A stretch of 60,244 bases of DNA from Candidatus Cloacimonadota bacterium (GCA_003647765.1 QMNM01000001.1:1-60244); one strand, 5' to 3'; shown: positions 5,303 through 60,000, counted from the first letter of the stretch. Notes: generated by a model not told the origin, from the letters alone. Numbers and translations are program-made.

Positions 5303-7673
5303 AACTCAAATCCTTTCCTATTTTTCCTTCAGTTTCAATGGGGTATCCAACATTGATGCCCCAATGCTTTTTTATGTATTCTTTCGTTCTATTTTCAAAA
5401 CAATCTTTCAATATCTCTTGTGCTTTTTCGGCAACATCTTCTCTTGCTCTATAATAGTAGGCATCGTGGATAAAAAGGTTAGTCAGGATTACTTTATCTT
5501 TCAGGTCGGGGCGGGATTTTATTTCCTTCCAGAACAACATTATTCCAAGACATGCTAGTTCGCTACTGAAATTCTGAACAGGAGTATTGATTGCCTGCCT
5601 TTCCGCTTTACTTCTCAACCTGAAATCATCAGAATCAATATGCGGTAAATGTCTTTTCCTTCCTAAAACACATCTTATATACTTATGCTTTCTTGCAAAC
5701 TTAACCATTCGTTCATGATATAAAGGAAGTTTCCAGTATCCATTGGGTTTAGAGAAGAAAAGTTCTCTATATCGCTCTGCTTCTTCTAAAGTGAAGACGA
5801 CATCATAGTTTTTAAAAGCATAATCAACCAGAGAATTTGCCTGCATTCCGTATATTAATCCAAAATTTATCGGCTTTGAGAGCTGTCTCAAGTCTTTAGT
5901 AATTTCTTCTAAAGGCTTTCCTGAAATAAGGGAGGCTGTTCTTTTATGTAAATCTATCCCTTCATCTAAAGATTTCAGGATATTTTCATCTTGAGCCAGC
6001 CAGCCTATTATTCTCATTTCACTTTGACTTAAATCCTGACTGCATATAACCCAGCCATCTTCGGCTACAATATTTCCCAAAACCTTTTCAGAGAATTCTC
6101 CGTGTGCTGGAAATTGTTGCATAGGAGGGTCTAATATTACAGTTCTCCCTGTTACTGTTCCTGTTAGGAATATCTTTGGGTAAATATATCCATCTGGATA
6201 CAGATTTTTTCTTATTGCTTTGATGTAAGTGTTCAGAATTTTGCTTATCTGTTTATATCTTAATAGCTTTGCGACCCATTCGTTATCTTTGAATCGTTTT
6301 AGATGATATTTATCGGTAGAAGGTTGTTTTGTTTTTTCTGTAAATTCAACAGGTTTCAATCCCAGCCCTTTCTTTGTAAACATAAACTTTGCAATGATGT
6401 CGGGAGTTAATGAGTCTGCATCTTTCTTTATTGATTTAGGGATAGCATCCATTAATTCCTTTTCCAATTTTTTCATCTCTGTATAGAGAGAATCTTCGTT
6501 TTCATCTAGTTTATTCAGGTCTATTTTCCATCCGTTCGCAGATACATCGCTGAAAACGTTTTCAACGGGAAGGCAGTAATATTTGTAATATCTGGTTAAT
6601 TTTTTATCTTCCATAATCTTTTTCTTCAGGACATTGAAGACTTCAATAGTAACTTTAGCATCAAGACTGACATAATTCAGGAGCTTGCTTTCTTCTAATT
6701 TTTCCATCTCTGTCCTATTTCTATTCACTACATCTTTTATATTGTAGTAGGAAGTGAAGACATTTGCCAGATGCTCTAGGGAATAGGAAGCTAGGTTTTC
6801 ATCTACAACATGAGCCATTGTCATTACATCAAATATTTGTCCTTTAACTTCGCAACCAAGATTCTTTTTACATACAAGTTCATCAAAAGGACGATTATGC
6901 ACGACTTTCTTTATATTCTCATCTTCCAGTATTTTCTTTATACTTTCTTTGAGTTTATTGTCTTTGGTAAGGGATGCGTAGGGCAACCCTTCTTTTCCTG
7001 CCAGACCTATACATAAGACTTTTCCTTTCATGTGTGCGACCCGCAGGTTCTCTGTTTCAAGGTCAAAAGCTATTATTTTTCCTTTGGGCAAATTGATTGT
7101 TGTATATTCATGTTTAAAATCTTCCTTCTGTTTATAGAGAGCGACAGCATGTTTGATGTCGGCATAAAACAATTTCTCTACTTCATTCATCTTTTCTAAT
7201 GGAATATACGGATACCCACGCTTGCATTGTCTTAAAACATAGGCAGGATGAAATGTTGGAATAACAACAGCATCTCCGAAGGGAAATTGTAGTCCTCTGA
7301 AACTGGAAATTCTTTTCTTATTGAACATCTGATAGAGAGCCAGTTCTCCTAATAAGACAATCACTTTGGGTTTGAGGATTCCCAGAGCTTTTACAACATG
7401 TTCTTTACAGCACTTTGATGCTTTTTCTAAATCGGTTTTTTTATCCTGCCCTAATTTCTGGCACATTGTAGCATTCAAGATAGATATATCTACTCTAGAC
7501 ATCCCAAAGAGTGAAAACGTTTTCATTAAGAGTCGCCCACTTTCTCCTACAAAAGGACGACCTTCTCTTACTTCTTCCCACCCAGGACCTTCTCCTATAA
7601 CCACAAATTCAGGATTATTTTTCTCATATTTAACTTTCTTTCTTCCTTTAAAAGGACAATCTTTACAGCTCAT
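5289..7673 (-). CDS. polA: Family-A DNA polymerase fused to an N-terminal family-4 uracil-DNA-glycosylase-like domain and a 3'-5' exonuclease domain.
   Basis: UDG4 motifs GEGPG..PFVGESGRLL and HPAYVLR, plus N-terminal Cys residues. Exo I motif FDLETENL. Pol motif A DLSQSEMRI and motif B RQLSKPINFGLIYGM. Motif C-like IHDA. Confidence 0.9.
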   Translation of the reverse strand: MSCKDCPFKGRKKVKYEKNNPEFVVIGEGPGWEEVREGRPFVGESGRLLMKTFSLFGMSRVDISILNATMCQKLGQDKKTDLEKASKCCKEHVVKALGILKPKVIVLLGELALYQMFNKKRISSFRGLQFPFGDAVVIPTFHPAYVLRQCKRGYPYIPLEKMNEVEKLFYADIKHAVALYKQKEDFKHEYTTINLPKGKIIAFDLETENLRVAHMKGKVLCIGLAGKEGLPYASLTKDNKLKESIKKILEDENIKKVVHNRPFDELVCKKNLGCEVKGQIFDVMTMAHVVDENLASYSLEHLANVFTSYYNIKDVVNRNRTEMEKLEESKLLNYVSLDAKVTIEVFNVLKKKIMEDKKLTRYYKYYCLPVENVFSDVSANGWKIDLNKLDENEDSLYTEMKKLEKELMDAIPKSIKKDADSLTPDIIAKFMFTKKGLGLKPVEFTEKTKQPSTDKYHLKRFKDNEWVAKLLRYKQISKILNTYIKAIRKNLYPDGYIYPKIFLTGTVTGRTVILDPPMQQFPAHGEFSEKVLGNIVAEDGWVICSQDLSQSEMRIIGWLAQDENILKSLDEGIDLHKRTASLISGKPLEEITKDLRQLSKPINFGLIYGMQANSLVDYAFKNYDVVFTLEEAERYRELFFSKPNGYWKLPLYHERMVKFARKHKYIRCVLGRKRHLPHIDSDDFRLRSKAERQAINTPVQNFSSELACLGIMLFWKEIKSRPDLKDKVILTNLFIHDAYYYRAREDVAEKAQEILKDCFENRTKEYIKKHWGINVGYPIETEGKIGKDLSFNNP
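6551..6564. repeat. TGAAAACGTTTTCA palindrome, perfect copy, inside polA.
   Basis: Read as E-N-V-F. Confidence 0.95.
7512..7525. repeat. Palindrome, perfect copy, inside the polA UDG domain.
   Basis: Read as K-T-F-S. Confidence 0.95.
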
Positions 7674-7692
7674 TATTGCCCTCCTTTATCTT

Positions 7693-10666: not shown

Positions 10667-11628
10667 TTGTTTATGATTTGGTTTACTAAATTATCCCTGA
10701 ACTCTAAATTTTCCATCAAAGTTTTTTCTATCTCTTTTTGTGTCTTATATTTATTTCCAGCGTATTCATAGGAAGATTTATTTCTATTGATTATTCCCAG
10801 ATCAAGGGCAAATTTCAGGATAAGATTTTCATCAACAACCTTTCCCTGCTGAATATCAATTTTAAACTCTCCGCTAATGCGTGGGTAACCAGCTTTATTC
10901 TTTTCTATTGTGAATTGATGAACAGCTCTGTAAGGAATATCTCCTTTAGTTTCATATTTGGACAGGTATAAATGCACTATGAGATAGGAGAGATGTTCAA
11001 CTATATATCCTCCTGGCATTCTGATTTTTGATTCAAATTTCCTTGCTCCGACATTAGCCCTAGCTTGGTTTATCAGGATGCAGGTCAAAGGTCGCTTTTC
11101 CTTTTGAGCATTTGCCATACTAACCAATAACTTATTGAGCATTTTCCTTATTAACCTTGCCGACCCAGCTACTTGAGTATCTTCACTATCGTTTTCAACT
11201 TCACTAATAGAGATAATGGCAGGCAAGCTGTCTATCACAATAAGACTTACAGCGGGTTCTAAACTCATCTGATAAGCCAAATCCACTCCTTGTTCTCCAT
11301 AATCAGGAGAGATTATAACGATCCTTTTCATATCAGATACAAAATTAGACATCCATTCTTTGTTTAATGCCTGTTCAAAGTCAATATAGACAACATAATC
11401 CTGTGAAAACGTTTTCAAAAAGGAATCAATTACTTTAAAACTGAATGTGGTTTTGCCCGAACTCTTTGTGCCCCATAGGGTCGTAAATTTATTTACAGGA
11501 ATCCCTCCACCTGTAAGCAAATCAAAAGTAAATATTCTTGTAGGGATTTTTGTTATATTTGGGAATGTCTCTCCTATATTCAAAACATTCCCATATTCTT
11601 TTGTTATCTTTTCAAACAGTTCCTTCAT
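10645..11628 (-). CDS. RecA-family recombinase.
   Basis: GGIPVNKFTTLWGTKSSGKTT resembles the RecA GGLP..GRI.EI.G.ESSGKTT motif. YIDFEQAL is present. Walker B is LIVIDSLPAI. Confidence 0.8.
   Translation of the reverse strand: MKELFEKITKEYGNVLNIGETFPNITKIPTRIFTFDLLTGGGIPVNKFTTLWGTKSSGKTTFSFKVIDSFLKTFSQDYVVYIDFEQALNKEWMSNFVSDMKRIVIISPDYGEQGVDLAYQMSLEPAVSLIVIDSLPAIISISEVENDSEDTQVAGSARLIRKMLNKLLVSMANAQKEKRPLTCILINQARANVGARKFESKIRMPGGYIVEHLSYLIVHLYLSKYETKGDIPYRAVHQFTIEKNKAGYPRISGEFKIDIQQGKVVDENLILKFALDLGIINRNKSSYEYAGNKYKTQKEIEKTLMENLEFRDNLVNQIINKWWEGKK
11404..11417. repeat. Palindrome, perfect copy, inside the recA-like CDS.
   Basis: Read as K-T-F-S. Confidence 0.95.
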
Positions 11629-14364: not shown

Positions 14365-15291
14365 TTATATTTTTTTGATTGATTTTAATGCCTTGTTAAT
14401 AACTCCTTTTTCAACCATCTCTGCGGGATCATTACATCCTTGATAATCCTTTACTTTGTAGAAGACCATGTAATCTTTGAGCTTCTCATAAATTCTTTTT
14501 TCAGCTTTCTCTCCTGCCTTATCATTGTCAAAAAACAATACCAATTCTTTAGCTTCGCAGGTTCTCAAAGTTTTCAATTGAGCATTACTTATTTCCGATC
14601 CTCCCGCAGACCATACATTGTATATCCCAACATCCCATAACTTCAAAAGATTCCTTTCTCCTTCTACCAGAATTAAAGGCTCATCTGGATTTATAGGAAG
14701 ATGATAACCAAACCATACTCCCAAGCTGTGGGGCATCTGCCCCCCAAACTCTTTGTAAAATCTATATCTTGGTTGCTCTGGATCTAACCCTAAATATCTT
14801 CCTTTCAAGGCTATTACTCTATTGTTGTAGTAGCGAATTGGAATCACGACCCTTCTCTCTTTCGGATCATATCTCAATGAAAACGTTTTCACTGTTTCCT
14901 TCTTGAATAATTTTCCTGTGTAAATAGGGAAAGGAATATAGTTTATATATCTTGGTTTCTTCGGAGATATATCTCTGAACAGAGTAGGGATAAACAATTC
15001 CTTCTTCCCAAACTCTTTTAGAGAAGGATCATCTATTCCTGTTACATTTTTCCATGTATTATAGATACGGCTGACATGTCCTTTTATTCCGCACCCAAAA
15101 CAATGAAAGACACCGTTAGCTAGATTGATTCCAAACGATGGATTTCTATCCACTCCACCTTCATGAGTCCATTTTGCGAATGGGCAAGAGCTGTTTATCC
15201 AGTTCCCGTTTTTTCTGACCTGCGGGTTTTCTATCCCTAATCGGCGAAGCAAGTCTATATAAATGTGCAGGTTCATATATGTTTTGCCCAT
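14365..15291 (-). CDS. dnaG: DnaG-like primase (zinc finger plus TOPRIM).
   Basis: CPFAKWTHEGGVDRNPSF...FHCFGCGIKGH, then TOPRIM motifs LVEGERN and FFDNDKAGEKA. The start was set at the ATG at 15291, preceded by AAGGAGGAGG. Confidence 0.85.
   Translation of the reverse strand: MGKTYMNLHIYIDLLRRLGIENPQVRKNGNWINSSCPFAKWTHEGGVDRNPSFGINLANGVFHCFGCGIKGHVSRIYNTWKNVTGIDDPSLKEFGKKELFIPTLFRDISPKKPRYINYIPFPIYTGKLFKKETVKTFSLRYDPKERRVVIPIRYYNNRVIALKGRYLGLDPEQPRYRFYKEFGGQMPHSLGVWFGYHLPINPDEPLILVEGERNLLKLWDVGIYNVWSAGGSEISNAQLKTLRTCEAKELVLFFDNDKAGEKAEKRIYEKLKDYMVFYKVKDYQGCNDPAEMVEKGVINKALKSIKKI
14878..14891. repeat. Palindrome, perfect copy, inside the primase CDS.
   Basis: Read as K-T-F-S. Confidence 0.95.
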
Positions 15292-15514: not shown

Positions 15515-16697
15515 TTTTCACCTCCGAAAAATCCATTCTTTCCCAGTCCCAATTGATTTCAAAGGACTGGGTTATTCCTTCTCTATTTGCAAAAACATCT
15601 ATCACTTTTGTAGGAGAATTATCTTCTCCATGAATTCCTATTGCAACCGAAACTAATTGGCTCAAAGCATCGGTCAATTGTATCTTTTCCAGATCTCCTC
15701 CTTTAGTTCTTGATGCTTGTCTATTAAATTGGAACGAAACCACAAAAGGTTTGGAGTAAGTAAGAGCAAGGTTCTTTAGCTCATTGGCTAATACAGTCGC
15801 ATTCTCCCACAAACTCTTATAGTGCTTCTGGATTTTAATCAGATACCCGCCGTCAATGAACACAATATCTGGATTATATTTCTCTACAAGGAATGCAATA
15901 TCATCTATGGTTTTTGAAAACCTGCCTTCAACATATAAGAAAGGTAGTTCTGTATCCAGCAAGGAAGCGATTTCTCTTTCTGCAAATGAACTGATTTCTC
16001 CTGTATGAAGTGCAGAGAAATTCAGCTTGGAATGCAGAGCAATAATCCTTTTAGCTTGTTGCTTTATACTCATCTCCATTGAAATAAGCATAGGAATATA
16101 TCCCTGTTGGGCTACATGTAGAGCAGAATAAGCCATGATAAGAGATTTTCCCATCTTCGGTCGGGCAACAATCAGGTCCAAATCTTCTGGTTGATAGCCT
16201 CCAGTCAAGAAATCCAGCGTATCCCAGCCTGTTGGAATCCCAATTGGCTTATCTATCTTTGTTCTTTTCTCCTGAATATAATCCAGAACTGTTTGGGCTA
16301 AATCTCTGAAAGTTTTAACTCCATCTTCTATTTGCTTCAATCTCTTATATCTGGCAATAAACCTTTCCATTCTGGAAATAAGAGCATCAATCTCATGCTT
16401 CCGTATATCTTCTTCTATTTCAGTAGAGAGATTTAACAAATCTTCTTTGAGTTTCCTTTCTATGCACCGTTGATAGAGAAGATCAATAGGAGCATCGGGC
16501 ACTAGGATTTCTTCTTCATCTATCAGCTCGGCAAAGGTCTGGATTGATGGAAGGCTTCTATATTTCTCTACATATTCCTTTATTATTTTATATTGTTCCT
16601 TTTCGTAATCAATGAAAATGTTTTCATTCAGCAAACGAAATAACTTCAGATCCCTGTCTCGCAGTATTGCTACCAACAAATTTGTCCCGATTGACAT
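15480..16697 (-). CDS. dnaB: DnaB-like replicative helicase.
   Basis: GIPTGWDTLDFLTGG, Walker A ARPKMGKS, Walker B VFIDGGYL, then FQFNRQ. Confidence 0.9.
   Translation of the reverse strand: MSIGTNLLVAILRDRDLKLFRLLNENIFIDYEKEQYKIIKEYVEKYRSLPSIQTFAELIDEEEILVPDAPIDLLYQRCIERKLKEDLLNLSTEIEEDIRKHEIDALISRMERFIARYKRLKQIEDGVKTFRDLAQTVLDYIQEKRTKIDKPIGIPTGWDTLDFLTGGYQPEDLDLIVARPKMGKSLIMAYSALHVAQQGYIPMLISMEMSIKQQAKRIIALHSKLNFSALHTGEISSFAEREIASLLDTELPFLYVEGRFSKTIDDIAFLVEKYNPDIVFIDGGYLIKIQKHYKSLWENATVLANELKNLALTYSKPFVVSFQFNRQASRTKGGDLEKIQLTDALSQLVSVAIGIHGEDNSPTKVIDVFANREGITQSFEINWDWERMDFSEVKNEENQTASRAT
16613..16626. repeat. Palindrome variant TGAAAATGTTTTCA, inside dnaB.
   Basis: The central CG is TG. 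Read as E-N-I-F. Confidence 0.9.
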
Positions 16698-17553: not shown

Positions 17554-17823
17554 ATGCAAGAGTTAATTCCAGGATTCCCACCTTTTCCGCTTGAGAAAAA
17601 AGTTAGGAGAGAGACAAAACTTTTCTGGACTTTCTTTGCAAGATGTCCGAAGGTTGATAATTTTTGTATCTACTATCGTCCTGCGTGGAGAAGATGTATG
17701 TTGTTGAAGGACAATAAGGGTAGGGAAGGGCGACCGATTAAGCAAGTAAAAGAATGTCCAGATGAATACGGATTCAAGTTTGGTCCTTCTGCATATAGAA
17801 AGATATATGAACCTTTAGATTGA
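17554..17823 (+). CDS. Hypothetical Cys-rich basic protein. It is the only plus-strand gene inside the leftward replication block.
   Basis: 89-codon ORF with a weak SD. Its TGA stop is the first triplet of a palindrome copy. Confidence 0.4.
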   Translation: MQELIPGFPPFPLEKKVRRETKLFWTFFARCPKVDNFCIYYRPAWRRCMLLKDNKGREGRPIKQVKECPDEYGFKFGPSAYRKIYEPLD

Positions 17824-17834
17824 AAACGTTTTCA
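17821..17834. promoter_or_regulatory. Palindrome, perfect copy, intergenic.
   Basis: Its TGA is the stop codon of 17554..17823. Confidence 0.95.
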
Positions 17835-17848
17835 CTCTAAAAATTAAA

Positions 17849-20421: not shown

Positions 20422-20877
20422 TTACCACCAAAGTTTTTTATTGGATTTCTTTAATATCTTTAATTCTTCTTTTCCTTTAGTGAAAATGTTTTCAATGTTT
20501 CCTTCTACAAAGAACTTGGTTTTCGTATGGACTATTTTCTTATAACTAGCTTTCTTGCTCACCTTTGCTCCCACAATAGTCGCAGAATAAGGATGCCCAA
20601 ATACTATAAATACAATTCTCATCACGATCCAGATTCCGTCTGGAAGCCATACCGCCATCTCTCTACTGTTCATGTAAGGATACTCGTTTACAGGACGCAA
20701 GTATTCTATTTCGTCTGCAAGGAATCGGTAATTTATATAAGCATTCCACTCCGACAGCCTTATTGCGTTCTTTGGCAAAGTATTTGCTTTCCCTATCGCT
20801 ACTCGCAAGCTCCTTTCCGTATCCAGCGTATATGTTCCACAAAAAAACCTTATTTTATTCTTCATTGAACAATTCAT
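20422..20877 (-). CDS. Hypothetical protein.
   Basis: ORF in the operon. It contains a variant palindrome copy read as ENIF. Confidence 0.5.
   Translation of the reverse strand: MNCSMKNKIRFFCGTYTLDTERSLRVAIGKANTLPKNAIRLSEWNAYINYRFLADEIEYLRPVNEYPYMNSREMAVWLPDGIWIVMRIVFIVFGHPYSATIVGAKVSKKASYKKIVHTKTKFFVEGNIENIFTKGKEELKILKKSNKKLWW
20481..20494. repeat. Palindrome variant (TG centre), inside CDS 20422..20877.
   Basis: Read as E-N-I-F. Confidence 0.9.
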
Positions 20878-22125: not shown

Positions 22126-22153
22126 TTGAAAATTTTTTCAAATTTATTATAAT
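22126..22153 (+). promoter_or_regulatory. Sigma70-like rightward promoter for the terS block.
   Basis: TTGAAA, 16 nt, TATAAT. A palindrome copy starts 7 nt downstream of the -10. Confidence 0.65.
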
Positions 22154-22159
22154 TGTCAG

Positions 22160-22173
22160 TGAAAACGTTTTCA
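22160..22173. promoter_or_regulatory. Palindrome, perfect copy, between the -10 element and the terS SD.
   Basis: It starts 7 nt after TATAAT and ends 12 nt before AAGGAGG. Confidence 0.95.
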
Positions 22174-22199
22174 ATTCAACAAAAAAAGGAGGTTGAGCG

Positions 22200-22963: not shown

Positions 22964-23473
22964 ATGATTTGTCCTGTATGTAATCTCAATTATCCTGATA
23001 GGCAGTGTCCTAGATGTGGCTGGAAGCCAGGGCACTGTCCTAACTGTGGTTTTGTTCTCATTAATGATGAGTGTTTTAGGTGCGGATTTAAACTCCTAAA
23101 AATTGAAAACGTTTTCACTCAAAAGGAGGGGAAAATGCTTAATTTAAGGCTAATTAACGAAGAAGGTAAAGAAAAAGAAATAACCGCATTAGATTTTGAA
23201 CATTTAGCAGAGAAGGTTTTTGATTTCTATTACAACGGTCAACCTAATTTCATCACTCCGCACATTTTAGAATACAGCCATAAACGGAATGGAAATAGAT
23301 TTCTGTTCGTAGAATTAAGTAAGGGAGAAGGGATTTATCATGAGCGGATATATGGAGTTACAGTTTTGGAAGGCAGACTAAAAGGGAACAAACTGTATCT
23401 GAAGCGGAGAATAGACAAAATGAAGTGTTTTAAGAATATCAATGAAGCCAAGACCTACATCAGAAGTTTATAA
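22964..23473 (+). CDS. Hypothetical protein with an N-terminal triple CxxC zinc ribbon. A second SD and ATG lie in frame at 23135.
   Basis: CPVC..CPRC..CPNC..CFRC. A palindrome copy plus AAGGAGGGG precede the internal ATG. Confidence 0.55.
   Translation: MICPVCNLNYPDRQCPRCGWKPGHCPNCGFVLINDECFRCGFKLLKIENVFTQKEGKMLNLRLINEEGKEKEITALDFEHLAEKVFDFYYNGQPNFITPHILEYSHKRNGNRFLFVELSKGEGIYHERIYGVTVLEGRLKGNKLYLKRRIDKMKCFKNINEAKTYIRSL
23104..23117. promoter_or_regulatory. Palindrome, perfect copy, before the internal SD and ATG at 23135.
   Basis: It ends 5 nt before AAGGAGGGG. It is also read as E-N-V-F in the long ORF. Confidence 0.95.
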
Positions 23474-25396: not shown

Positions 25397-25410
25397 TGAA
25401 AACATTTTTA
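25397..25410. promoter_or_regulatory. Degenerate palindrome TGAAAACATTTTTA, intergenic.
   Basis: It follows the stop of 25023..25388 and precedes the hairpin at 25414-25434. Confidence 0.7.
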
Positions 25411-25845: not shown

Positions 25846-25859
25846 TGAAAACATTTTCA
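25846..25859. promoter_or_regulatory. Palindrome variant (CA centre), intergenic.
   Basis: It follows the stop of 25475..25840 and lies directly before the terminator. Confidence 0.9.
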
Positions 25860-27000: not shown

Positions 27001-27004
27001 GGAG

Positions 27005-27018
27005 TGAAAACGTTTTCA
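27005..27018. promoter_or_regulatory. Palindrome, perfect copy, first of a twin pair.
   Basis: Its start is 29 bp from the start of its twin (15-bp gap). It lies at the convergent junction. Confidence 0.95.
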
Positions 27019-27033
27019 ATCCGTCCCTGCCAG

Positions 27034-27047
27034 TGAAAACGTTTTCA
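27034..27047. promoter_or_regulatory. Palindrome, perfect copy, second of the twin pair.
   Basis: It ends 3 nt before the stop of the 27050 gene. Confidence 0.95.
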
Positions 27048-27049
27048 AT

Positions 27050-27612: not shown

Positions 27613-27626
27613 TGAAAACGTTTTCA
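27613..27626. promoter_or_regulatory. Palindrome, perfect copy, upstream of the SD of 27050..27595 (minus strand).
   Basis: It lies 5 nt from AAGGAGGG. Confidence 0.95.
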
Positions 27627-30871: not shown

Positions 30872-30885
30872 TGAAAACATTTTCA
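30872..30885. promoter_or_regulatory. Palindrome variant (CA centre), upstream of the SD of 30402..30857 (minus strand).
   Basis: It lies 6 nt from GGAAGGAG and abuts the stop of the 30886 gene. Confidence 0.9.
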
Positions 30886-33059: not shown

Positions 33060-33070
33060 AAACGTTTTCA
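33057..33070. promoter_or_regulatory. Palindrome, perfect copy, upstream of the terL SD.
   Basis: Its TGA is the stop of 32604..33059. It ends 4 nt before GAGGAGGG. Confidence 0.95.
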
Positions 33071-38204: not shown

Positions 38205-38545
38205 TATGGGATTCACTCAATTTTGGTGTTTCTCTTTTAACAACTATTACAGGTATAGCAATTGTATGGGGGAAGATGGTGGAGAGGGTAAAGAGGATTG
38301 AGGATGATGTATTAGGGTTGAAGAAGGTTTTGGGGAGGACAGGGAACGGCTCATCGCTCTATATTACTTCCAGAGAGCATGAGAAGGATATAAATGTTTT
38401 AAGGGAAGACATACAGGAAATAAAGGATATGGTGAGACAATTGCAATTGGATTTACAGGAGCATGCAAGGCAGAATACTGAAGAATTACAGGCAATTCAG
38501 GCAACGATAGGCAAGATGCAGTATTATTTAGATACGCACAAGTGA
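38201..38545 (+). CDS. Membrane-anchored coiled-coil protein.
   Basis: An N-terminal TM-like segment LNFGVSLLTTITGIAIVWG is followed by a coiled coil. Confidence 0.5.
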   Translation: MIWDSLNFGVSLLTTITGIAIVWGKMVERVKRIEDDVLGLKKVLGRTGNGSSLYITSREHEKDINVLREDIQEIKDMVRQLQLDLQEHARQNTEELQAIQATIGKMQYYLDTHK

Positions 38546-38556
38546 AAACATTTTCA
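38543..38556. promoter_or_regulatory. Palindrome variant (CA centre), intergenic.
   Basis: Its TGA is the stop of 38201..38545. It ends 4 nt before AAGGAGGG. Confidence 0.9.
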
Positions 38557-40484: not shown

Positions 40485-40657
40485 TGTTATTTTTGGGCAA
40501 GATTATATTTGGTGGAGAAGTTTTTTATACAGGAAATTACACATTGCCTTTGCAATTGAAAGTGAAGAAAAGCGAATTTAAGTTAGTTGTTAGGAAGAAA
40601 GGGATAGTTGTGAAGTTGACTATTCCCAATTATAATATTTTGATAGACAAAAAGTGA
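40484..40657 (+). CDS. Small hypothetical protein (57 aa). It is not in the ORF track.
   Basis: Its start is coupled to the upstream gene by an ATGA overlap. Hand translation gives MLFLGKIIFGGEVFYTGNYTLPLQLKVKKSEFKLVVRKKGIVVKLTIPNYNILIDKK. The TGA stop is part of a palindrome copy. Confidence 0.4.
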   Translation: MLFLGKIIFGGEVFYTGNYTLPLQLKVKKSEFKLVVRKKGIVVKLTIPNYNILIDKK

Positions 40658-40668
40658 AAACGTTTTCA
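40655..40668. promoter_or_regulatory. Palindrome, perfect copy, intergenic.
   Basis: Its TGA is the stop of 40484..40657. It ends 7 nt before GGAGGGAG. Confidence 0.95.
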
Positions 40669-44850: not shown

Positions 44851-44864
44851 TGAAAACGTTTTCA
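44851..44864. promoter_or_regulatory. Palindrome, perfect copy, just after the capsid terminator.
   Basis: It ends 4 nt before AAGGAGG of the 44878 gene. Confidence 0.95.
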
Positions 44865-46411: not shown

Positions 46412-46425
46412 TGAAAACGTTTTCA
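46412..46425. promoter_or_regulatory. Palindrome, perfect copy, intergenic.
   Basis: It ends 5 nt before AGGGAGG of the 46443 gene. Confidence 0.95.
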
Positions 46426-50028: not shown

Positions 50029-52311
50029 ATGGGATTTAAGGACAAAAAAGAGTTTAGTTGGAAAGTTTTTGAGAGAGGAGCTTATTGGACTATATATACT
50101 CATGTTGGCGTGTTTGGATGGAAGAATTTTTATTTTATTTTGAGGCAGTATGGAAATGTTCTTTTCTTGAGAAAATATAAATTTCCCGATGTATTACTAT
50201 GGGAAAGAAAGGTATATAATAAACCAGACTGGAAAGCTCTACCATTAGGAGCTGGGGTAGTAACACCATCTAGGATCTATTTTGCTAGATGGATAGATGA
50301 AGATGTAGGATGGATAGAACATAAAGATGATGTAGGGGATTATCCTACTTTCCATCCTATTTTATCGGCAGGTGGTAGAAAAGAAAATTTACAAGGACTT
50401 GCGTCTGTAAAAAAATGGTCAGCTACATTATACAGAGATGCTTATTTGTTTCATTGTGATGTAGGAGCACATCGTATTTTAGTTACTGATCTTGATGGGG
50501 GGTATATAGGAGAATTTGGAAGTTATGGTAGTTTACATGGGCAATTTAAAAAACCGCATCAATGTGCTTTATATTGGCATCCTGTATTTGGAGATATACT
50601 TTTTGTAGCGGATTATGGTAATGGGAGAATAACGGTATGGCAGATAGAGTCTATAAATCCTTTTAAAGTAAATCCAGTGGCAGGTGGGATTGAAGGTTTA
50701 GTTGATGATGATCGTCCGTGTGGGGTAGCGGTTTGGAGGAATCAACTATATATAAGATGTTATAAACATAAAGTAAAAGAATTTAAAATAAATTCGGATT
50801 TAACATTGGAGGCGACTGGAAATGAAGATTCTTTTGATTCTGATTGGGTTAATGGATTATGTATGTATTTAGCAAAAGATTCTAATTCTCTTGTTACTCT
50901 TGTTCAGAGTTATGCTGGTGAATTTCAGGCTTCAAGAGTAAATTTAGTTACTTATACAATAACTGCCATTGAAAATACAATGGAAGGTTCGGTAGGGTTT
51001 CGTTGCGATGCTTTGAGTTTTGGGATTGAAAATAGTTTTGGGTTTAGTATTCGTGCTGGACATCAAGGAGTATGGAAAGGATTTGATTTAGAATTTGAAG
51101 GGTATGCACCACCTCCTCCTGTTGTAGATGTTGATTTTAAATTTTCCTGTTCTGCGAAGCATGATATTCGTGCAATGATTCGCTCCTTTGGTTTCAAAGG
51201 ACGTGTAGAACAAAGGCAGATAATAGAATTTATATTCTTCTCTTTTTTAGGACATTCTAATTATATGTTTGGAAATGTAGATTTTTCCATAGACATGGAT
51301 ATAATCGTTACTGAATTTCTCACTGGTGAAAACATTTTCAATTTTAAGATGATAGCGAATGCTCCGCTGGTTTATACCTGCCATCTTGACACAAAGCCTA
51401 TTGAACTTGAAGGAGAGCTTATTAATTCTTCTTTTGTTTCCTGTTCTCTTGAATTACCTTCATTAGAGATTGTTATCAGAGAGAGTCCTGCAGGGAGCGT
51501 TGATTTACCTGCGATAGATATTTTTGGAGAGATAGAAGTTCCTGTTGTTGGTAATGTGGGTTTGAATTTAGCAAGGTTGCAATCATCAGGGCAGATAGTA
51601 AATCCGTTCTTTGTTGGTGGGCAGGCAATTGTGCCTGCAATGAAAGTTTCTGGTCTTATTTATCGTCCTGATTTAATCAGTGGTAATTTAATTTTCAGAG
51701 CTTTACAGACAAATGGAATTGGGTATGCGTCGCTGGATAGATTAGATATTCATTGTATTTTGAATGAGTTACAAATGAATAGTGAAATTCTTGTGAATCC
51801 TGTTTTGGTAGGAGAGTGTGAACTGGCTCTATTTGAAGTAAGGGCTGTTGAAAGGAAGGAGATTTCTTCTACTGAAGAAATTTATCAGAATGATGAATTG
51901 AATGTTGTTTCTGCTGAATATCCTGAAGTTGAAGGTAGGGAATTGTTAGGTGTTGCTGTAAATCTTTTGAACAAGGGAATTACGAAATTAGCGAATACTT
52001 CAAATATGGTTATAGATTTAGGTTATATAGACCTTCACAAGTCTGTAATAAATCAGTATTTGGAAGTTTTTATTAGTGGAAAATCTGACCAGCCAGCTAT
52101 TGGAGAGTTAATTATAGGAGATTATTCTTATTCAATTGATGAGTGGGTAACGGAAGGGGAGTGGAGGATTCTTGTTGGTAAAGGTTTGACAAGACGCACG
52201 GCTTCCAATCCTGATAAAAGATATATTCCTATTAAGTTAAAATTAGTTTCAGGTTTTGAGTTAAAGAGTGTGGTTGTGAAGGCAATACCAGTTGCTAGGA
52301 GAGGAAGGTAA
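50029..52311 (+). CDS. NHL-repeat (beta-propeller) tail protein.
   Basis: GSYGSLHGQFKKPHQCALYWHPVFGDILFVADYGNGRITVWQI. Confidence 0.55.
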   Translation: MGFKDKKEFSWKVFERGAYWTIYTHVGVFGWKNFYFILRQYGNVLFLRKYKFPDVLLWERKVYNKPDWKALPLGAGVVTPSRIYFARWIDEDVGWIEHKDDVGDYPTFHPILSAGGRKENLQGLASVKKWSATLYRDAYLFHCDVGAHRILVTDLDGGYIGEFGSYGSLHGQFKKPHQCALYWHPVFGDILFVADYGNGRITVWQIESINPFKVNPVAGGIEGLVDDDRPCGVAVWRNQLYIRCYKHKVKEFKINSDLTLEATGNEDSFDSDWVNGLCMYLAKDSNSLVTLVQSYAGEFQASRVNLVTYTITAIENTMEGSVGFRCDALSFGIENSFGFSIRAGHQGVWKGFDLEFEGYAPPPPVVDVDFKFSCSAKHDIRAMIRSFGFKGRVEQRQIIEFIFFSFLGHSNYMFGNVDFSIDMDIIVTEFLTGENIFNFKMIANAPLVYTCHLDTKPIELEGELINSSFVSCSLELPSLEIVIRESPAGSVDLPAIDIFGEIEVPVVGNVGLNLARLQSSGQIVNPFFVGGQAIVPAMKVSGLIYRPDLISGNLIFRALQTNGIGYASLDRLDIHCILNELQMNSEILVNPVLVGECELALFEVRAVERKEISSTEEIYQNDELNVVSAEYPEVEGRELLGVAVNLLNKGITKLANTSNMVIDLGYIDLHKSVINQYLEVFISGKSDQPAIGELIIGDYSYSIDEWVTEGEWRILVGKGLTRRTASNPDKRYIPIKLKLVSGFELKSVVVKAIPVARRGR
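51327..51340. repeat. Palindrome variant (CA centre), inside the NHL protein CDS.
   Basis: Read as E-N-I-F. Confidence 0.9.
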
Positions 52312-54278
52312 TGGATTTAAATGAGTTAGTGAATTATTACAATCAGATTACGAATAATATTTCGGTGATAGGGAATGAGATTGTGAATTTTTCTGATGAA
52401 GTAAAGAGCGTTGTGGTTAACACTTTTACCGTGCCTGAAGGAGATGATGATCCGTCTGCCTATGATCATTTTGCAGGAGATAGCTGGACAGATTTTTTAG
52501 ATGAATTAGAAAATAAAGTTCCTGATATAGATATAGACATTCCAGATTTCAGCGTGGATTCTTCTGATTATAAAGCGATTATTTCGTCTTTAAATGATGC
52601 GTTGGATCAACTTTTTGAAGAAGCGTCTTCCTATGTAATAAACCTTCCTTCTATTTCCATTCGTGAAGGAGATGATATTCCTGATTATTCTTTTGAATAT
52701 ACTTATCCAGAGAATATTTCTCCTTCTATTCCAGAGTTGCCGACGATTCCCGACCCTTATATTTTTCAGATTCCTGATTTAGATATTGAAGTTCCAGACA
52801 AGGAGACTTTTTCTGTTAATGATTTATTGATTTACATAAATGATTATGTAGCACAAATTGTGGAGGCTCTGGATAGTATTTCGGTTAATTTAGATGTATC
52901 TCATGATTTCAATTTAGATATTGATACTTCTTTTTATAGAGACGCAAAGAGTCTTGATGACTGGAAGAAGGATTATGATAGGGTTTTAGGGTATCAGGGT
53001 CGGATTGATTTGAATTTGATTAAGGAAGTGGTGGAAGGGGAGCGGTTGGATTCGTATGTATTTTCAGAAGAAATGATAAAATCTCTGGCTGATTTTTCAG
53101 AGAGAGTAGTCAGGGTTGCTCCATTGAAGCATTTGAAGACTCTGGAATTAGAGAAAGAATTAGACCAGCTTTCAAGCGAAGCTGTATCCAGAGGCTTTTC
53201 TGATGATGTGATTGATGGGAGTCTTTATTATGATATTTCTCTACATAAGTTAAAAGTTAAGAATGAATTAGCTGAAATTAAAGCTAAAGTGCTTTCTGAA
53301 TACGGTGAGCGTGTGTGGAAAATGGTGGAGAACAAATCTGCTCTATTCAATATTTTTTCTTCTTTCTTACTTCTTTCTTATTTTTCATTAGTTGATATGG
53401 TTTCAAAGATTTATATGACAGAGATACGCAGGGTAAATCAGTATATTTCAATACTGGAGAGATTCTGGCAGTTGAAGATTCGGCAGGTTGATTCTTTGAT
53501 AAACAAAGTAAAATCCAATCTTTCTATGCTTGTTGCGGATGTGCGACAGAAGTTATTAAATGAAACAATTGATTTAGATAGTGAGATTTTTTCCAAACAG
53601 GCTTTGTCTCTATTGGTAGAGAATGTAAATCAGAAGATTCAGAGATTTTTGCAGACATTGAAAACATTTTCAACGAAGGTGCGGGAAGAAAGAACGAAAT
53701 TAGACCTTTATCAGATTAAGTCTTATTTAATTCAGCAACAGATGAGATTAGAGACGATAAAGAGCGACCAGTATATAGTAAAGAACAGGAATAATCTTCT
53801 TACTGCTTTAAGAGATATAACAGATATGGATATTTTGAGTTCCAAGCTGGATTTTATAAGCAGGAGTCAGCGGGCTAAATTGGAAGTAGTCAGGACTTAT
53901 TTAGATTATATTTCAACCGCATTGCGGAAGTATAACAATGTTCCAGATTTAACCAGACGGATTGAGAATTTGCGGGCAGAGATAGACAAGTTCTCTATTC
54001 AATCCAATGCAGAGAGCAGGATAAAGAATTTGTGGTTATCTACTATGGATGAGAGAGCGGGGAGAGATACTTTTGATTATAGATTGTTTATGAAGAAGGC
54101 TTTATTTGATGTGGACAGGGCTGTTGATTTTGCTTTAATGCATTTAAGGGACAGGTTGAATAAAGACACGACAAAGTATAGGATTTTAGGAGAGTATTAT
54201 GAAAGGAATATTCGTGGAGTGTTATCTGCGGCACATACAATTGTTTCCATGACTGATAAGCTATTGGAGGGTGGTTAA
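52311..54278 (+). CDS. Internal virion/ejection protein candidate, paralogue 1.
   Basis: An acidic, IPD-rich N-terminus is followed by a long helical C-terminus. NLLTALRD is shared with the next gene. Confidence 0.5.
   Translation: MDLNELVNYYNQITNNISVIGNEIVNFSDEVKSVVVNTFTVPEGDDDPSAYDHFAGDSWTDFLDELENKVPDIDIDIPDFSVDSSDYKAIISSLNDALDQLFEEASSYVINLPSISIREGDDIPDYSFEYTYPENISPSIPELPTIPDPYIFQIPDLDIEVPDKETFSVNDLLIYINDYVAQIVEALDSISVNLDVSHDFNLDIDTSFYRDAKSLDDWKKDYDRVLGYQGRIDLNLIKEVVEGERLDSYVFSEEMIKSLADFSERVVRVAPLKHLKTLELEKELDQLSSEAVSRGFSDDVIDGSLYYDISLHKLKVKNELAEIKAKVLSEYGERVWKMVENKSALFNIFSSFLLLSYFSLVDMVSKIYMTEIRRVNQYISILERFWQLKIRQVDSLINKVKSNLSMLVADVRQKLLNETIDLDSEIFSKQALSLLVENVNQKIQRFLQTLKTFSTKVREERTKLDLYQIKSYLIQQQMRLETIKSDQYIVKNRNNLLTALRDITDMDILSSKLDFISRSQRAKLEVVRTYLDYISTALRKYNNVPDLTRRIENLRAEIDKFSIQSNAESRIKNLWLSTMDERAGRDTFDYRLFMKKALFDVDRAVDFALMHLRDRLNKDTTKYRILGEYYERNIRGVLSAAHTIVSMTDKLLEGG
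53659..53672. repeat. Palindrome variant (CA centre), inside CDS 52311..54278.
   Basis: Read as K-T-F-S. Confidence 0.9.
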
Positions 54279-56119
54279 TGTCCACGATAGGTAGTTTAAT
54301 AGACGAACGAATTAATACGATTCTTACTGAATCCGCAGAGATAACTTCTGCTATAAATCATTATGTTGAAGAAATCAGGAGAAGGGGAAGCATCAGGATA
54401 ACAGCTCCGCCCCCGCCAGACATTGATTTTGATTTATATCCCTTACCTGATTTTCCGACCGAATCTCCCATATCAGATATAGATGAATTACCAGAGAGAG
54501 TTTATCCTGATAGGGATATTGTTGATTTTGATGTGTCTTCTTATCTGTCGGAGATAGAAGATTTGATTAAGGAAGTGAGCGTTCAGTCTCCTACTTTTGA
54601 TTCCATTAATTTGGAAGTATCTTCTGTATCTCCTCCAGAGATTCCTGATGAATTACAATCAATAGAATCTCCGACTTTAGATTCTTTACCTTCTTTTACT
54701 GCTCCTGAATTAGAAGGGATTGAGCGTCCGCTTCTATTCAATCCAAGATATGATTTTGATTTTTATCAGGATGATTTAGTTATTGAGTCTAAAAAGTTTT
54801 TTGAGCAGATAGATTCTCTATTGAATCAGGATTTACAATATGGGATATGGTTGAAACAGCTTATTGAAAAGAGAAGGTCGGATGTAGAAAGGGTAATAGG
54901 TTTTTATGAGCAGGTTATTTCTATTTTAGAGAGTAAGGATTTTCTTGAGCGTTCGGAGCTGGCTAGGCAAAGGATTGATTCTATCATTAGTGATAAATAT
55001 GACCAATATATTGAGCCTGTTTATGATGTTTATACTGCCAATGCTCCTGCATTTTTAAAGGAGAAATTGAGCAAGTTAGACCAGCAAATAGACAATCTTG
55101 TTAGTGGTCGGGCAGATGAGTTGGTTTTCAGTGAAAACGTTTTCAAAGATAAAGATAGGCAGGACAGGCTTTATGAGCTGATAATGAAAGCGAAGGAAGA
55201 ATTAAACAGGCAGGAAGAATTATTTGTAAACACTTTAGTTTCTCTACAAGAGCTTTTTCAGTCTTATGTTTTGCTTTATCTCAATCGGGTTTATTTAAAT
55301 GCGTATATTTTGTATGAGAAGGAGAATTTATTAACTGCTTTGCGGGATGTTTATATTGTGGTTGTGGGACGATATGTTTCTCTATATAAGGAAACTTATT
55401 CTGATTATTATTCTGTTATTCTCAAAAGAAGTCGGGCAGTTCTGGAGTATATAGATTCAATTTTGAGAAAGAACAATGCTTTGTGGCAGGCATATAATAA
55501 TCAAGTTTCTCTATTAGAAGATTTTGTAAATCAATATCAGTCTTTAGCTAGGACTTATAGTTCTCGTGTGGATTTTGAAGCTAGCAAAGTTTCTCTAATG
55601 GAGGGTATGTTTAGGATCAATCAATCCAAACAGGATTTATTTGAAGCTATTGCAAGGAAAGTGAGAAATATGTATTCTTTAAGAAAGGAGAAGATACAGG
55701 AGATACTTACAAAGGCAGATGCGGAGATGGGATTAGAGAGAATGTATCAGCAGATAACACAGGAGAAGGGCAGGGTTCTGGAGAATATTCAAAGGCTTCA
55801 ATCTCAAGTTTTATCTACTGATGTAATCAGGTATGGGAAGGAATTTAATAAATGGCTTGAAGATATAATGGTAGATTATAGGGCAAAAGTCAGGGCTAAT
55901 GCGGTAAAGATTAATTTATTATCGCAAGCGTATGATACTTTTGTGCGGAGGGCACTCAAGTATGCTTCCTATTTAAGAACAGCACAAGGAATGATTAATG
56001 ATTTTACAGAGAGATTAGCCCTGATGGCATTTAGTCCATTGGCAGAGATGTCTAATGGGCTAAATAGTGCAATAGATGCAGTAGTTAATGGTATGTATGA
56101 GTTTGTAGTGGAGGCTTAA
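54278..56119 (+). CDS. Internal virion/ejection protein candidate, paralogue 2.
   Basis: Same architecture as paralogue 1. ENLLTALRDV and R.RAVLEYIDSILRK parallel RAKLEVVRTYLDYISTALRK in the previous gene. Confidence 0.5.
   Translation: MSTIGSLIDERINTILTESAEITSAINHYVEEIRRRGSIRITAPPPPDIDFDLYPLPDFPTESPISDIDELPERVYPDRDIVDFDVSSYLSEIEDLIKEVSVQSPTFDSINLEVSSVSPPEIPDELQSIESPTLDSLPSFTAPELEGIERPLLFNPRYDFDFYQDDLVIESKKFFEQIDSLLNQDLQYGIWLKQLIEKRRSDVERVIGFYEQVISILESKDFLERSELARQRIDSIISDKYDQYIEPVYDVYTANAPAFLKEKLSKLDQQIDNLVSGRADELVFSENVFKDKDRQDRLYELIMKAKEELNRQEELFVNTLVSLQELFQSYVLLYLNRVYLNAYILYEKENLLTALRDVYIVVVGRYVSLYKETYSDYYSVILKRSRAVLEYIDSILRKNNALWQAYNNQVSLLEDFVNQYQSLARTYSSRVDFEASKVSLMEGMFRINQSKQDLFEAIARKVRNMYSLRKEKIQEILTKADAEMGLERMYQQITQEKGRVLENIQRLQSQVLSTDVIRYGKEFNKWLEDIMVDYRAKVRANAVKINLLSQAYDTFVRRALKYASYLRTAQGMINDFTERLALMAFSPLAEMSNGLNSAIDAVVNGMYEFVVEA
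55132..55145. repeat. Palindrome, perfect copy, inside CDS 54278..56119.
   Basis: Read as E-N-V-F. Confidence 0.95.
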
Positions 56120-57083: not shown

Positions 57084-60000
57084 ATGGCAGAAAAGAAACA
57101 GGTTTTACCAACAATAGATGATCAATATGTAGAATTTCTTACTCGCAGGATGTTAGGGCTTCCTTTAACAGGACAGCTCAATTTACCTAAAGAGAAAGAT
57201 TTATTAAAGGTTCAGAGTCAAGGGCAGACAGCTTTACCTGTTTCAGTTCCGACGATGCAAGTTCCGCAAGCTCCTTCTGTTCCTATTCAGACACAGCAAG
57301 AAGAAGGCTGGCTTCCTGTTCTTGGTAAAGCGGTAGCCAGAGGATTAGCTACTCCTGTAATAGGTGCTACTGGAGCAATATCTGCTCTGGGAGAGCGGTT
57401 AGGTTTTGATACAAGTAAAATTCAGAAGTGGGCGAATGAGTTGTCTAACTTATTAGCTCCCAAAGTGGGTAAGAATAAAGCGAAGGCTTATGCTTATGGG
57501 ATTATAGATTCAACGATAAATAGTATTACTCAATTTCTCCTTTCAAGGTTTACCAGAGTTCCGCTTCTTCCTATGTTTGGTATTACTTCTGGTGGTGAAA
57601 AGTTCTTACAGGCAAGAGCGGAAGGGTATCCTTATGAGAAGGCAATAAAGACAGCTGTTCCTACTGGTTTATCTGAAGCTCTGACAGAGATGATTCCCTT
57701 CCACAGTCTTACAAAGACAATGAAGAAATCTATCATTAAGGGAGTTGTTGAGTTATTTGGTGGTGAGTTAGTGGGAGAGAATTTAAATACTATTGTTGAA
57801 AACATATCTGATCAGCTAGCTTTAGGTAAGCATAAGACTTGGAGTGAATTTTTACAGGATTTAGTGGACACAACTATTACCACATTAGGGCAGACTGCTC
57901 TTACTGCTGGATTGGGAGCGGGGGTTCACAGATTAGCACGAAGGGTAGAAAAGAAAGCAAAGGCAATAGAGCAACCTGCTCCTGAAGTTCCTCCACAACC
58001 ACAACCAGCTCCAGCAACATCTCCTTATGAATTACTAACTGCTTTACCACAGAAGCCAGAGCAGGTATCTGCGGGAGTAGCTTCTATATATGATAGGATT
58101 GCGGATAGGTTAGAAGGAAAACAGAAAGAAAGGGCAAGGAAACATGCTTCTGTATTGAGAGATATAAGTCAGAAGAAAGTTCCTGCTGTTGAAGATATAA
58201 AGGAAGTTAGGGAAGATATAAGTAAATCTGAAAGGTTGCCTAAATCTGTAAAGAATATTTTAGTAAAGCATTTAGATTCTCTGATTAAGCAGGCTGAAGA
58301 AAAGAAAAAGAAAGAGCTTATTCCTAAAGAAACCAAGCCAGAAGTTAAAGAAGAAAAGCCGAAACCAAAGGAAGAAAAGCCAAAGGAAGAAGTCAAAACA
58401 GAAGAAAAAATTGAAAACGTTTTCACTCAACCAGAAGAAGAAAAGTTGACTGATGAAGAAATAAAGATTTTGAAGGATAGAGGATTTACTGACAATCAGA
58501 TTAAGAAACTCCTTCCTGAAGAAGGGAGGAGGTTAATAAAAGAAAATCTTGCTCCTGAACAGGTAAGCGTTCTCCCTAATGGAAAGGTAAAAGTTATAGA
58601 GAAGAAGAAGGAAGTTTCTGTTCCTGAAAAAGAAGAAGCGAAGGAAAAAGAACCCTGGCAATTGACGAAGAAAGAATGGGAAAGTTTATTGGAGAAAGAT
58701 TTAACTCCAGAAGAAGCAAACAAATTCTTTCCTAAAAAGCGAATTGATAAATACAGAATTTATCACAAGAAGTATGGGGAGAAAGTTGTTCCTACATATA
58801 AGCGTATAGATAAAAAGACGAAGGGCACTTTTGAGATAAACAAGTATATTTTACAATCTGAACCTGATTTGATTGATGTAATTAGGAGATGGCATGTAGA
58901 GCAGGCTTTAAAGGAAGGTAAACCCGTTCCTGAAGAAGTTTTGAAGGAATTTCCTGATTTAGTAAAAGAAGAAAAGAAACCAGAAAAAACCAAACCTTTA
59001 TTTGAAGGAGTAGATAATTATCGTCTTACTTCTAAAGGACATGAGTTAAGGGTTGTAAGGGCAGGAGAAGCACTTTCTCATCCTGATAGGAAAGGGACTT
59101 GGTTTGTTGTTGAAAAATATAAAGGGCAGATTCCTCCGTATGCAACTTCTCCTATAACAAAAGGTGGAGTTGCTGGTGTTGGTGGAAAAGAGATATGGAG
59201 GACTTCTGTTACTTTGCGTAATCCTTATTTGTTTGAGATTCCTGAAGATATAAAGAGTGAAGGAGAGATTCCTTTAGCTCTCTATAAGGAAGTTACAGGG
59301 AAAGAGCCTCCAAAGAGAGGATTAAAAGGAAAGAATGCAGAAAAAAGGTTTGCGAAATTAGAAAGTGAGATAGCGGATACTTTAAGAAAGAAAGGTTATG
59401 ATGGAGTAATTCTTTATCAGAGAGTTGGGGAGAATACTTATCCCGACCAAGTATTTGTTTTTAGGGATACAGAGGCTCATAAAGAGTTGGAGAAAAGTTT
59501 AGAGAAGAAATCAGAAGCGAAAGAGAAAGAGACCAAGAAAGAACTTATCCCTGCTGAAAAGAAGGAACAGAAGAAGGAAACCAAGCAAGAGCTTATTCCT
59601 ACTGAAGAAAAGAAGGAAAAGAAAGAACAGAAGAAGAAGGAACTTATCCCTTCTGCTGAAGAAGTAAAGAAAGCGAAACCTGTTTCTAAAATTTCTTTTG
59701 AATATGGAAAGACCAAGAGTCAGATGAAAGTAAGGCATGAGGTTTATGGAGAGTTGCCTTTCTTTATAAAGAGAGGGTTTAAAGGCTGGAAATTATATGG
59801 AGAGAGAGCTGTAAAGTTAAAGAATGGCAGGGTTGTTATTGTTCGTCAATTAAGGGCACAGGGATTAAAATCTGTTGAAGATGTTAGGAAGAAGATTCAG
59901 TCTTTTATTGATGAAGGTGAGCCTGTAATTATAGCTGATAAGGATGTATTGAAAGAGCGTCCGCTGGAGGATATAAGCGGGAAGGTAATCAGACCTGAAG

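Follow-up and report, generated by a model that had tools for sequence, protein, structure and literature searches.

Dispersed, invariant dyad repeats are known in a few phage groups. In Cluster O mycobacteriophages, 17-bp dyad repeats (TGTTCGGNNNCCGAACA) display invariant inverted arms around a variable centre; phage Corndog carries 34 copies, 14 of which are intergenic, a dimeric binder was predicted, and the function was described as unknown (PMC4351075). The stoperators of Cluster A mycobacteriophages (L5/Bxb1 type) are dispersed operators of one repressor that block elongation as well as initiation, and they often lie in short intergenic gaps at stop codons (PMC9283540, PMC6550527). Here, we describe dyad repeats of this kind in an unrelated family of uncultivated phages known from metagenomes. 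The starting point is a DNA stretch of 60,244 nucleotides (GCA_003647765.1 QMNM01000001.1:1-60244; hereafter the window), which is a complete circular phage genome deposited under Candidatus Cloacimonadota, and the element is a 14-bp palindrome, TGAAAACGTTTTCA, which a first-pass annotation made from the sequence had singled out.

The window contains 16 exact copies of TGAAAACGTTTTCA, each where the first-pass annotation had placed it, versus none in 100 dinucleotide-preserving shuffles. Chance or composition as the source of the motif is thereby ruled out, as had been surmised. When up to two mismatches are allowed, 26 copies are found for 0.59 expected: the 25 listed before, all recovered, and one left out of that list, at 22127, which reads TGAAAATTTTTTCA and has a TT centre. 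Eight copies bear a single mismatch, confined in every case to the central CG, which becomes TG or CA; the copy at 25397 combines a CA centre with one further mismatch. The degenerate word TGAAAAYRTTTTCA is matched exactly by 24 of the 26 copies, with one mismatch by the other 2 and with two mismatches by none, and the set of copies is therefore 'digital' rather than graded. The 14-mer forms the inner part of an 18-bp dyad, AGTGAAA-RYRW-TTTCA(C/A)T. The full unit is a slightly asymmetric 18-mer, AGTGAAAACGTTTTCAAT, that fits 18 of the 26 copies and is present in both orientations, on genes of both strands. The absence of orientation preference noted earlier thus stands, while the supposed alternation of G..A and T..C flanks is this one 18-mer seen in its two orientations. 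The fully symmetric form, AGTGAAAAYRTTTTCACT, is frequent in relatives, and across the family the centre varies only between pyrimidine-purine (YR) steps (CG, TG, CA and TA). Copies in non-coding DNA amount to 14 of 26, for 6.8% of the genome (P = 1.8e-10); the other 12 are inside genes, where they are translated as ENV/IF or KTFS, as previously remarked. We also compared the site coordinates by hand for regular spacing round the genome and rejected it, the gaps looking random with the largest at 8.3 kb.

The two best sigma-70-type promoters of the 16-34 kb region overlap at 22126..22174, one on the plus strand (22126-22153, TTGAAA-16-TATAAT) and one on the minus strand (22174-22146, TTGAAA-17-TATAAT), each with 11 of 12 matches. 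Two copies of the motif lie on this pair, and each of them combines the -35 element of one promoter with the start site of its partner. The degenerate TT-centre copy (22127..22140) contains the TTGAAA of the rightward promoter and covers the leftward start site, and the exact copy at 22160..22173 sits on the rightward start site, provides the leftward -35 and lies 14 nt before the Shine-Dalgarno (SD) sequence of terS; the latter is the copy that had been placed between the TTGAAA-16-TATAAT promoter and that SD. At the equivalents of the terS promoter in five other lineages (L275, L281, L324, L016 and L086), a copy is likewise found at about -43 to +40, but not at a fixed offset; depending on the lineage, it overlaps the -35, lies at +6 or falls on the start codon. 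Such variable offsets suit a repressor acting by occlusion or as a roadblock, and not an activator that needs a fixed geometry.

We then consider how the motif is conserved, using 120 viral stretches, out of at least that many that carry the exact 14-mer, and a total of 325 fetched loci. About 30 of the 120 share proteins with the window, and from these comparisons the motif is a conserved trait of a metagenomic family of ~60-kb podophages. The search in related phages that had been proposed as a check traced it across the family down to members whose PolA is 38% identical (about 50% for SSB), identity of the capsid protein falling to 44% within the family; three near-complete relatives carry 13-16 copies each. 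Some positions are kept. The exact copy at 7512..7525, in the UDG domain of polA (KTFS in translation), is nucleotide-identical in three relatives (L056, L007 and L095), the TG-centre copy at 16613..16626, which overlaps the 5' codons of dnaB, has a CG counterpart in L014, and the exact copy before gene 46443 (46412..46425) keeps its position in L033, L073 and L168. Other positions are not conserved. The exact copy at 6551..6564, also inside polA (5289-7673, minus strand; ENVF), faces substitutions and no site at the homologous position of relatives; the one at 11404..11417, inside the recA-like gene (10645-11628, minus), is not kept in L095; the intergenic one at 44851 is absent as an indel in L033. 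For the exact copy at 14878..14891, inside the primase gene (14365-15345, minus), relatives align without gaps and without a site, so this copy arose by substitution. More generally, where an in-gene copy is missing from a relative the alignment shows no change in length, indicating that the copies arise by point substitution and not by insertion, which rules out a mobile mini-element. The conserved polA copy has identical nucleotides where the protein is only 61-73% identical, and distant homologues have other residues at this place; selection hence acts on the DNA word and not on the peptide. In these alignments, the synonymous positions of in-gene copies are frozen.

Arrays of 5-8 copies, many with TA centres, are found in relatives as well, preceded by a terminator and iteron-like repeats and followed by a strong TTGAC-17-TATAxT promoter. 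Within the arrays certain spacings are used repeatedly (22-23, 29 and 33 bp), without a single helical phase. The same values are found in the window, at 33 bp for the promoter pair and 29 bp for a twin pair (27003..27049) of two identical AGTGAAAACGTTTTCAAT, already recognized in the first reading, which directly follows an iteron-like array (26632-26920; AAAATCCYRAATTT..., repeated at least 10 times every 17 nt). In one relative, L257 (1215-1345 and 1397-1626), an 8-copy array is followed by a TTGACA-17-TATATT promoter that apparently drives a tRNA-like gene (T-arm recognized by eye). A literature search with the TA-centre word, GAAAATATTTTC, brought up no relevant match. Further away, the capsid relative L172 (59% identical, similar G+C) has the variant TGAAAGCGATTTCA at a terminator-motif-SD position equivalent to that of copy 44851, and the high-G+C capsid relative L202 (IMGVR_UViG_3300036845_000459) contains five copies of a different palindrome, TTACGACTGTCGTAA, between 4243 and 11892. 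The L202 case suggests that lineage-specific dyad words recur across a broad phage group. One of its copies is located just upstream of the SD of the capsid gene.

Five copies supply the TGA stop codon of a gene: to the four that had been reported, namely the exact copies at 17821..17834 (ORF, open reading frame, 17554-17823; 14 nt before the terminator hairpin 17848-17869), 33057..33070 (ORF 32604-33059; 5 nt before the terL SD) and 40655..40668 (ORF 40484-40657; before the next SD, with a 10/12 promoter-like site upstream) and the CA-centre copy at 38543..38556 (ORF 38201-38545; preceding the SD of gene 38574), we add the dnaB copy 16613, on the minus strand, for ORF 16624-17169. Nine copies are found 5-14 nt upstream of GGAGG, in agreement with the nine previously seen before AGGAGG-type SDs. 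Besides the cases above, SD-proximal copies include the exact ones at 23104..23117 (7 nt before an SD and the ATG at 23135, within ORF 22964-23473 if its first ATG is used), at 27613..27626 (just upstream of the SD of the minus-strand AAA_28 gene starting at 27595) and at 44851..44864 (between a GC-rich terminator and the SD of gene 44878), the copy before the SD of gene 46443, and a CA-centre copy at 30872..30885 upstream of the SD of minus-strand gene 30402-30857. Five intergenic copies adjoin terminator hairpins; the CA-centre copy at 25846..25859 ends 2 nt before the terminator 25862-25882, and the weakest copy of all, TGAAAACATTTTTA (25397..25410), comes after the stop of ORF 24888-25388 and before a hairpin. 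Elsewhere, gene gaps are about 6-15 nt or genes overlap, and the copy-bearing spacers have about the length of a copy plus a ribosome-binding site. Thus, these spacers exist largely because of the copy, and the short distance to the SD mostly reflects the compactness of the genome. The remaining in-gene copies are a TG-centre copy towards the 3' end of ORF 20422-20877 (20481..20494; minus strand), another inside terL (33716..33729), CA-centre copies inside ORFs 50029-52311 (51327..51340) and 52311-54278 (53659..53672), and exact copies inside ORF 54278-56119 (55132..55145) and inside the 2779-aa ORF that runs across the junction of the circle (58412..58425; ORF 57084 to 5302).

A palindrome with no loop, invariant arms, a centre restricted to YR steps, arrays in non-transcribed DNA and the covered promoter pair lead us to read the copies as operators. 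The best reading, to which we give a probability of about 0.5, is a genome-wide operator and roadblock network of a dimeric DNA-binding protein; an operator network had been among the first proposals, and it is supported by the promoter pair and the copy at -43 to +40 in the five lineages. The site would be recognized on double-stranded DNA by a dimeric, sequence-specific protein, as predicted earlier from its symmetry, with bending or kinking of the central pyrimidine-purine step. Occupancy of 22127 and 22160 would occlude both early promoters and repress initiation. Most copies are within operons; those between cistrons, beside terminators and in genes would then be stoperator-like roadblocks or boundaries to elongating RNA polymerase, or alternatively a reservoir for the binding protein. 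Several points weigh against this reading. A good sigma-70 promoter lies upstream of only 3 of 24 SD-proximal copies of the family, versus 5% in controls, so that a promoter before every such copy is ruled out and, for most copies, the roadblock role is assumed rather than indicated. Roadblocks in an apparently lytic phage would also get in the way of late phage transcription, except if the protein were removed or overridden. It is uncommon for ordinary transcription-factor sites to have 12 nearly invariant positions and, in L172 and L026, copies that directly abut the SD (0 nt) would equally suit a translational operator.

Comparison with the known phage systems makes the Cluster O dyad repeats the closest described analogue of the motif. 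In both cases there are tens of copies per genome with invariant inverted arms, a variable centre and no orientation bias; about 40% of Cluster O copies are intergenic, the rest being in genes or near 5' ends; association with promoters is mostly lacking, and the phages are not obviously temperate. However, the sequences are unrelated, the arms of the Cluster O repeats are 3 bp apart whereas those of the window motif abut, and the Cluster O phages infect Actinobacteria and belong to an unrelated family, judging from the relatives of the capsid and portal proteins. Neither arrays, nor overlap with an early promoter pair, nor likeness to a known operator class is reported for the Cluster O repeats in PMC4351075. 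These three features, arrays being present in relatives and the operator class being well understood, make the present motif a testable system. The stoperators resemble it by dispersal, with 26 copies here of which 14 are intergenic and 5 give a stop codon; they differ in being asymmetric, oriented with transcription and bound by the monomeric immunity repressor of a temperate phage, whereas the present site is a palindrome without orientation bias in a genome whose scanned ORFs include no repressor or integrase.

Three candidate binders are, in our view, equally open: two phage proteins and a host regulator of the LacI/GalR type. The first phage candidate (20855..21466, minus strand) is a 203-aa helical protein of the leftward early operon, under the motif-covered promoter. 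Close relatives all encode it, as does the distant L086, with synteny kept, and no sequence-level family was found for it in Pfam, in PHROGs or by profile search against the PDB. Its AlphaFold2 (AF2) model (pLDDT 67) has ParB/Noc DNA-binding domains as all of its top 8 fold matches in the PDB, at E = 2-4, which is not significant. The second candidate (32309..32659, plus strand) combines a helix-turn-helix with a zinc ribbon, has its own promoter (TTGACA-17-TATTGT, 32260-32288) and is kept beside terL in relatives. It gives weak Pfam matches to UPF0122 and to the NrdR Zn ribbon, and its fold matches the NrdR DNA-binding zinc ribbon (E = 4e-3; root-mean-square deviation 1.1 Å over 42-44 residues). 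This protein had been put forward as the obvious regulator; the NrdR-like ribbon makes it a plausible DNA binder, but not the obvious one, the two others being equally open. If the binder is a phage protein, the motif and its regulator would form a compact global pair that stays constant across deep divergence.

The first-pass annotation did not recognize the element as a described motif, in which it was mistaken, as the word matches the LacI/GalR operator class. TGAAAACGTTTTCA is the core of the RegPrecise cre consensus of Streptococcus thermophilus (ATGAAAACGTTTTCAA), its central 12 bp are the PurR operator of the crystal structure, and a related 18-mer is a LipR/CcpA site in Bacillus thuringiensis. 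The 16 CG copies fit the cre consensus TGWAANCGNTNWCA, and the 10 copies with a TG, CA or TT centre do not; a random 14-bp palindrome would fit it with a probability of 1/512, by our own arithmetic. In the L172 variant TGAAAGCGATTTCA, changes are confined to the 'N' positions of that consensus. Cre sites are, however, degenerate, and the phage copies far more uniform. The class includes Firmicute cre (CcpA) and the Escherichia coli PurR operator. No gene for a LacI-family protein is present in the phage: in a phmmer comparison of CcpA, LacI and PurR with all six-frame ORFs of 30 aa or more, no match reached E < 1. Among 42 loci with paired copies in cellular genomes, 12 have a LacI-family gene within 8 kb, including copies directly upstream of ccpA-like genes, and tblastx detected no prophage relatives in these 42. 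By contrast, only 2 of 74 metagenome stretches with the 18-mer contain a LacI-family ORF, at least 19 of the 74 being from the window's phage family. Unrelated low-G+C, mobile-element-like contigs (L161, a Bacillota metagenome-assembled genome (MAG), JAJBWD010000249.1; L097; L103) carry 5-12 cre-like boxes, TGAAARCGYTTTCA, round TTGACA promoters, and dense cre-type boxes on mobile elements may thus be more general.

The genome also shows extreme avoidance of short palindromes. Several 4-bp palindromes are purged (observed/expected: CCGG 0/61, CGCG 0/33, GCGC 0/65, GTAC 0/101, TCGA 1/74, GGCC 1/56), and CTNAG, GCNGC, CCAGG and several 6-mers (AAGCTT 0/19, GATATC 0/24) are avoided as well. ACGT occurs 18 times, 16 of them in the motif, which leaves 2 outside for about 54 expected, and all 16 AACGTT sites are in the motif. 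The change of CG to TG or CA abolishes ACGT. The sets of avoided sites differ among relatives; those that tolerate ACGT keep it in the motif, and the only other relative that avoids it (L172; 2 observed versus 11 expected) has a GCGA centre. From the loss of ACGT in the variants and the GCGA centre of L172, the 14-mer has some freedom at positions 6-9 and is retained in spite of restriction pressure. This interplay with restriction avoidance is an experiment of nature on the bases that the site can do without. The window also encodes a C5 cytosine DNA methyltransferase (PF00145; 7693-8892, minus strand), between polA and the next gene, with no homologue in the 325 fetched loci, syntenic regions of relatives included; this enzyme could protect the CpG of the motif or AACGTT.

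Among the rival explanations, binding by a host regulator of the LacI/GalR family, akin to CcpA, PurR or Cra, is one that we regard as unlikely though worth keeping in view; the metabolic state of the host would then gate the early promoters and operons of the phage, or replicating phage DNA would titrate the regulator away from host genes. The match to cre and to the PurR core, its low chance probability, the choice of positions altered in L172, the LacI-family genes near cellular copies, the TGAAARCGYTTTCA arrays of other Bacillota mobile elements and the lack of a LacI-family protein in the phage itself all speak for it, and a site identical across deeply diverged phages is expected if a conserved host factor sets its specificity. 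Note that cre sites inside operons act as roadblocks. On the other side, the copies do not show the degeneracy typical of cre sites, about 30% of those of the family lack the central CG that defines LacI-type operators, and LacI-family ORFs are rare on the metagenome stretches. The host probably is Gram-negative and not a Firmicute: the capsid protein is deposited, identical, under a Candidatus Cloacimonadota MAG, on a 62-kb contig that is also in ENA, although MAG binning is no proof of host, and the endolysin, an M15A/DUF882 peptidase, has its nearest named cellular homologues in Desulfobacterales, which together make a Firmicute host with CcpA and HPr unlikely. With similar reserve, one may picture a virulent phage of a non-Firmicute host that has about 24 perfect LacI/GalR-type operators and no LacI protein of its own, in which a host metabolic regulator gates the lytic programme or is sponged by phage DNA; the conflict between keeping the site and purging ACGT, in evasion of host restriction, would be visible in the variants and in the lineage-specific methyltransferase. 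With a host regulator as binder, the motif would offer a clear example of a lytic phage wiring its whole genome to a host sensor, or titrating that sensor. A rather improbable variant of the protein-bound site is that of genome-organizing, centromere-like sites for a phage ParB/Noc/KorB-like protein, serving partition, bridging or condensation and not primarily transcription. In the KorB (plasmid RK2), ParB-parS and Noc-NBS systems, a single helix-turn-helix protein binds 13-16-bp palindromes spread over promoters, intergenic gaps and coding sequences of the same replicon, and the phage motif shows the same scattered layout, with dispersed 14-18-bp palindromes and a clustered array beside iteron-like repeats. 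ParB-family site specificity can, moreover, stay constant over deep divergence, and the fold matches of the 203-aa protein all point to this family. Those matches are, however, not significant; the N-terminal CTPase domain of ParB was not among the Pfam hits and a reading of the gene set showed no ParA, neither being searched for specifically; and there is no sign of a plasmid or prophage state.

Explanations that need no such binding protein fare less well. An element acting in RNA, be it a 5' hairpin, a translational operator before ribosome-binding sites or an RNase processing site at cistron boundaries, would have the merit that the sequence of a palindrome does not depend on which strand is transcribed; the nine window copies and many in relatives are 0-14 nt before an SD, and early transcripts would start at or near a copy. 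We nevertheless judge it quite improbable, and the RNA-processing and 5'-UTR ideas raised at first appear weak. The core hairpin has a folding energy of -1.5 kcal/mol with the window consensus, against -5.0 if the dyad is fully symmetric, it is often unused in context with z-scores that are not significant, and a palindrome without a loop is poorly suited to form it. The arms show no covariation and no compensatory or G-U changes across the family, the arrays are located after terminators and upstream of promoters, in DNA that is not transcribed, and Rfam gives no match; on the same grounds we rejected an intrinsic terminator or other structured RNA. Modification, restriction or nicking, for instance through action on the central CpG or on AACGTT by the C5 methyltransferase that the phage encodes, would account for the concentration of ACGT and AACGTT in the motif and for variants that are C-to-T transitions at CpG. 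It is very improbable as the primary role, and nothing supports the modification or nicking site once suggested: 14-18 conserved bp are far longer than restriction-modification sites, the methyltransferase is missing from every motif-bearing relative, ACGT is not avoided by the relatives apart from L172, and a palindromic nick site would cause double-strand breaks. A selfish repeat spreading by insertion, which we grade together with it, conflicts with the origin of in-gene copies by substitution. Least probable of all is a middle or late promoter for a phage RNA polymerase or sigma-like factor. The motif is as uniform as T7-type promoters and precedes many genes, sometimes directly after a terminator; but it is symmetric and found in both orientations relative to genes, 12 copies are in genes, the 5' UTR would measure only about 5-15 nt, and Pfam scans of most, though not all, ORFs revealed no RNA polymerase or sigma factor.

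The circular genome measures 60,121 bp, the ends of the window overlapping by 123 bp (1-123 and 60122-60244), an overlap that shows the genome to be circular or permuted. It encodes a UDG-exonuclease-PolA fusion, the C5 cytosine methyltransferase, RecA, a helicase, primase, DnaB, an AAA ATPase, TerS, a dUTPase, TerL and an SU10-type portal. The junction-spanning 2779-aa protein has an HExxH motif, and its last 1759 residues have no Pfam match. No near-identical phage was found in GenBank; the nearest isolates, Rhizobium phage RHph_TM3_14A and HMO-2011-type podophages, are very distant (43% identity for the capsid protein and 31% for the portal). PHROGs matches are only to families of unknown function, no integrase or repressor was seen in Pfam and PHROGs scans of most ORFs, many of which have no family, and the window contains no tRNA. 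The IVYWREL fraction of the proteins is 0.426, which we take, from the rule relating this fraction to growth temperature, to mean a warm optimum of roughly 60 C, as a rough figure.

Two small minus-strand ORFs (19511-19843 and 31208-31453) recall archaeal viruses, one matching the STIV B116-like family (E = 7e-13) and another weakly the fusellovirus VP2. Between 25921 and 26173, there are three long AT-rich near-perfect palindromes, two of them in 74-nt repeat units with 16-17-bp perfect arms round CTTAAAG and the third with 37-nt arms, which may act as an origin or in packaging. A second non-coding stretch of ~0.8 kb (31440-31560 and 31760-31860) has short repeats similar to those of the iteron-like array, together with three tandem copies of GCCTTAAG.

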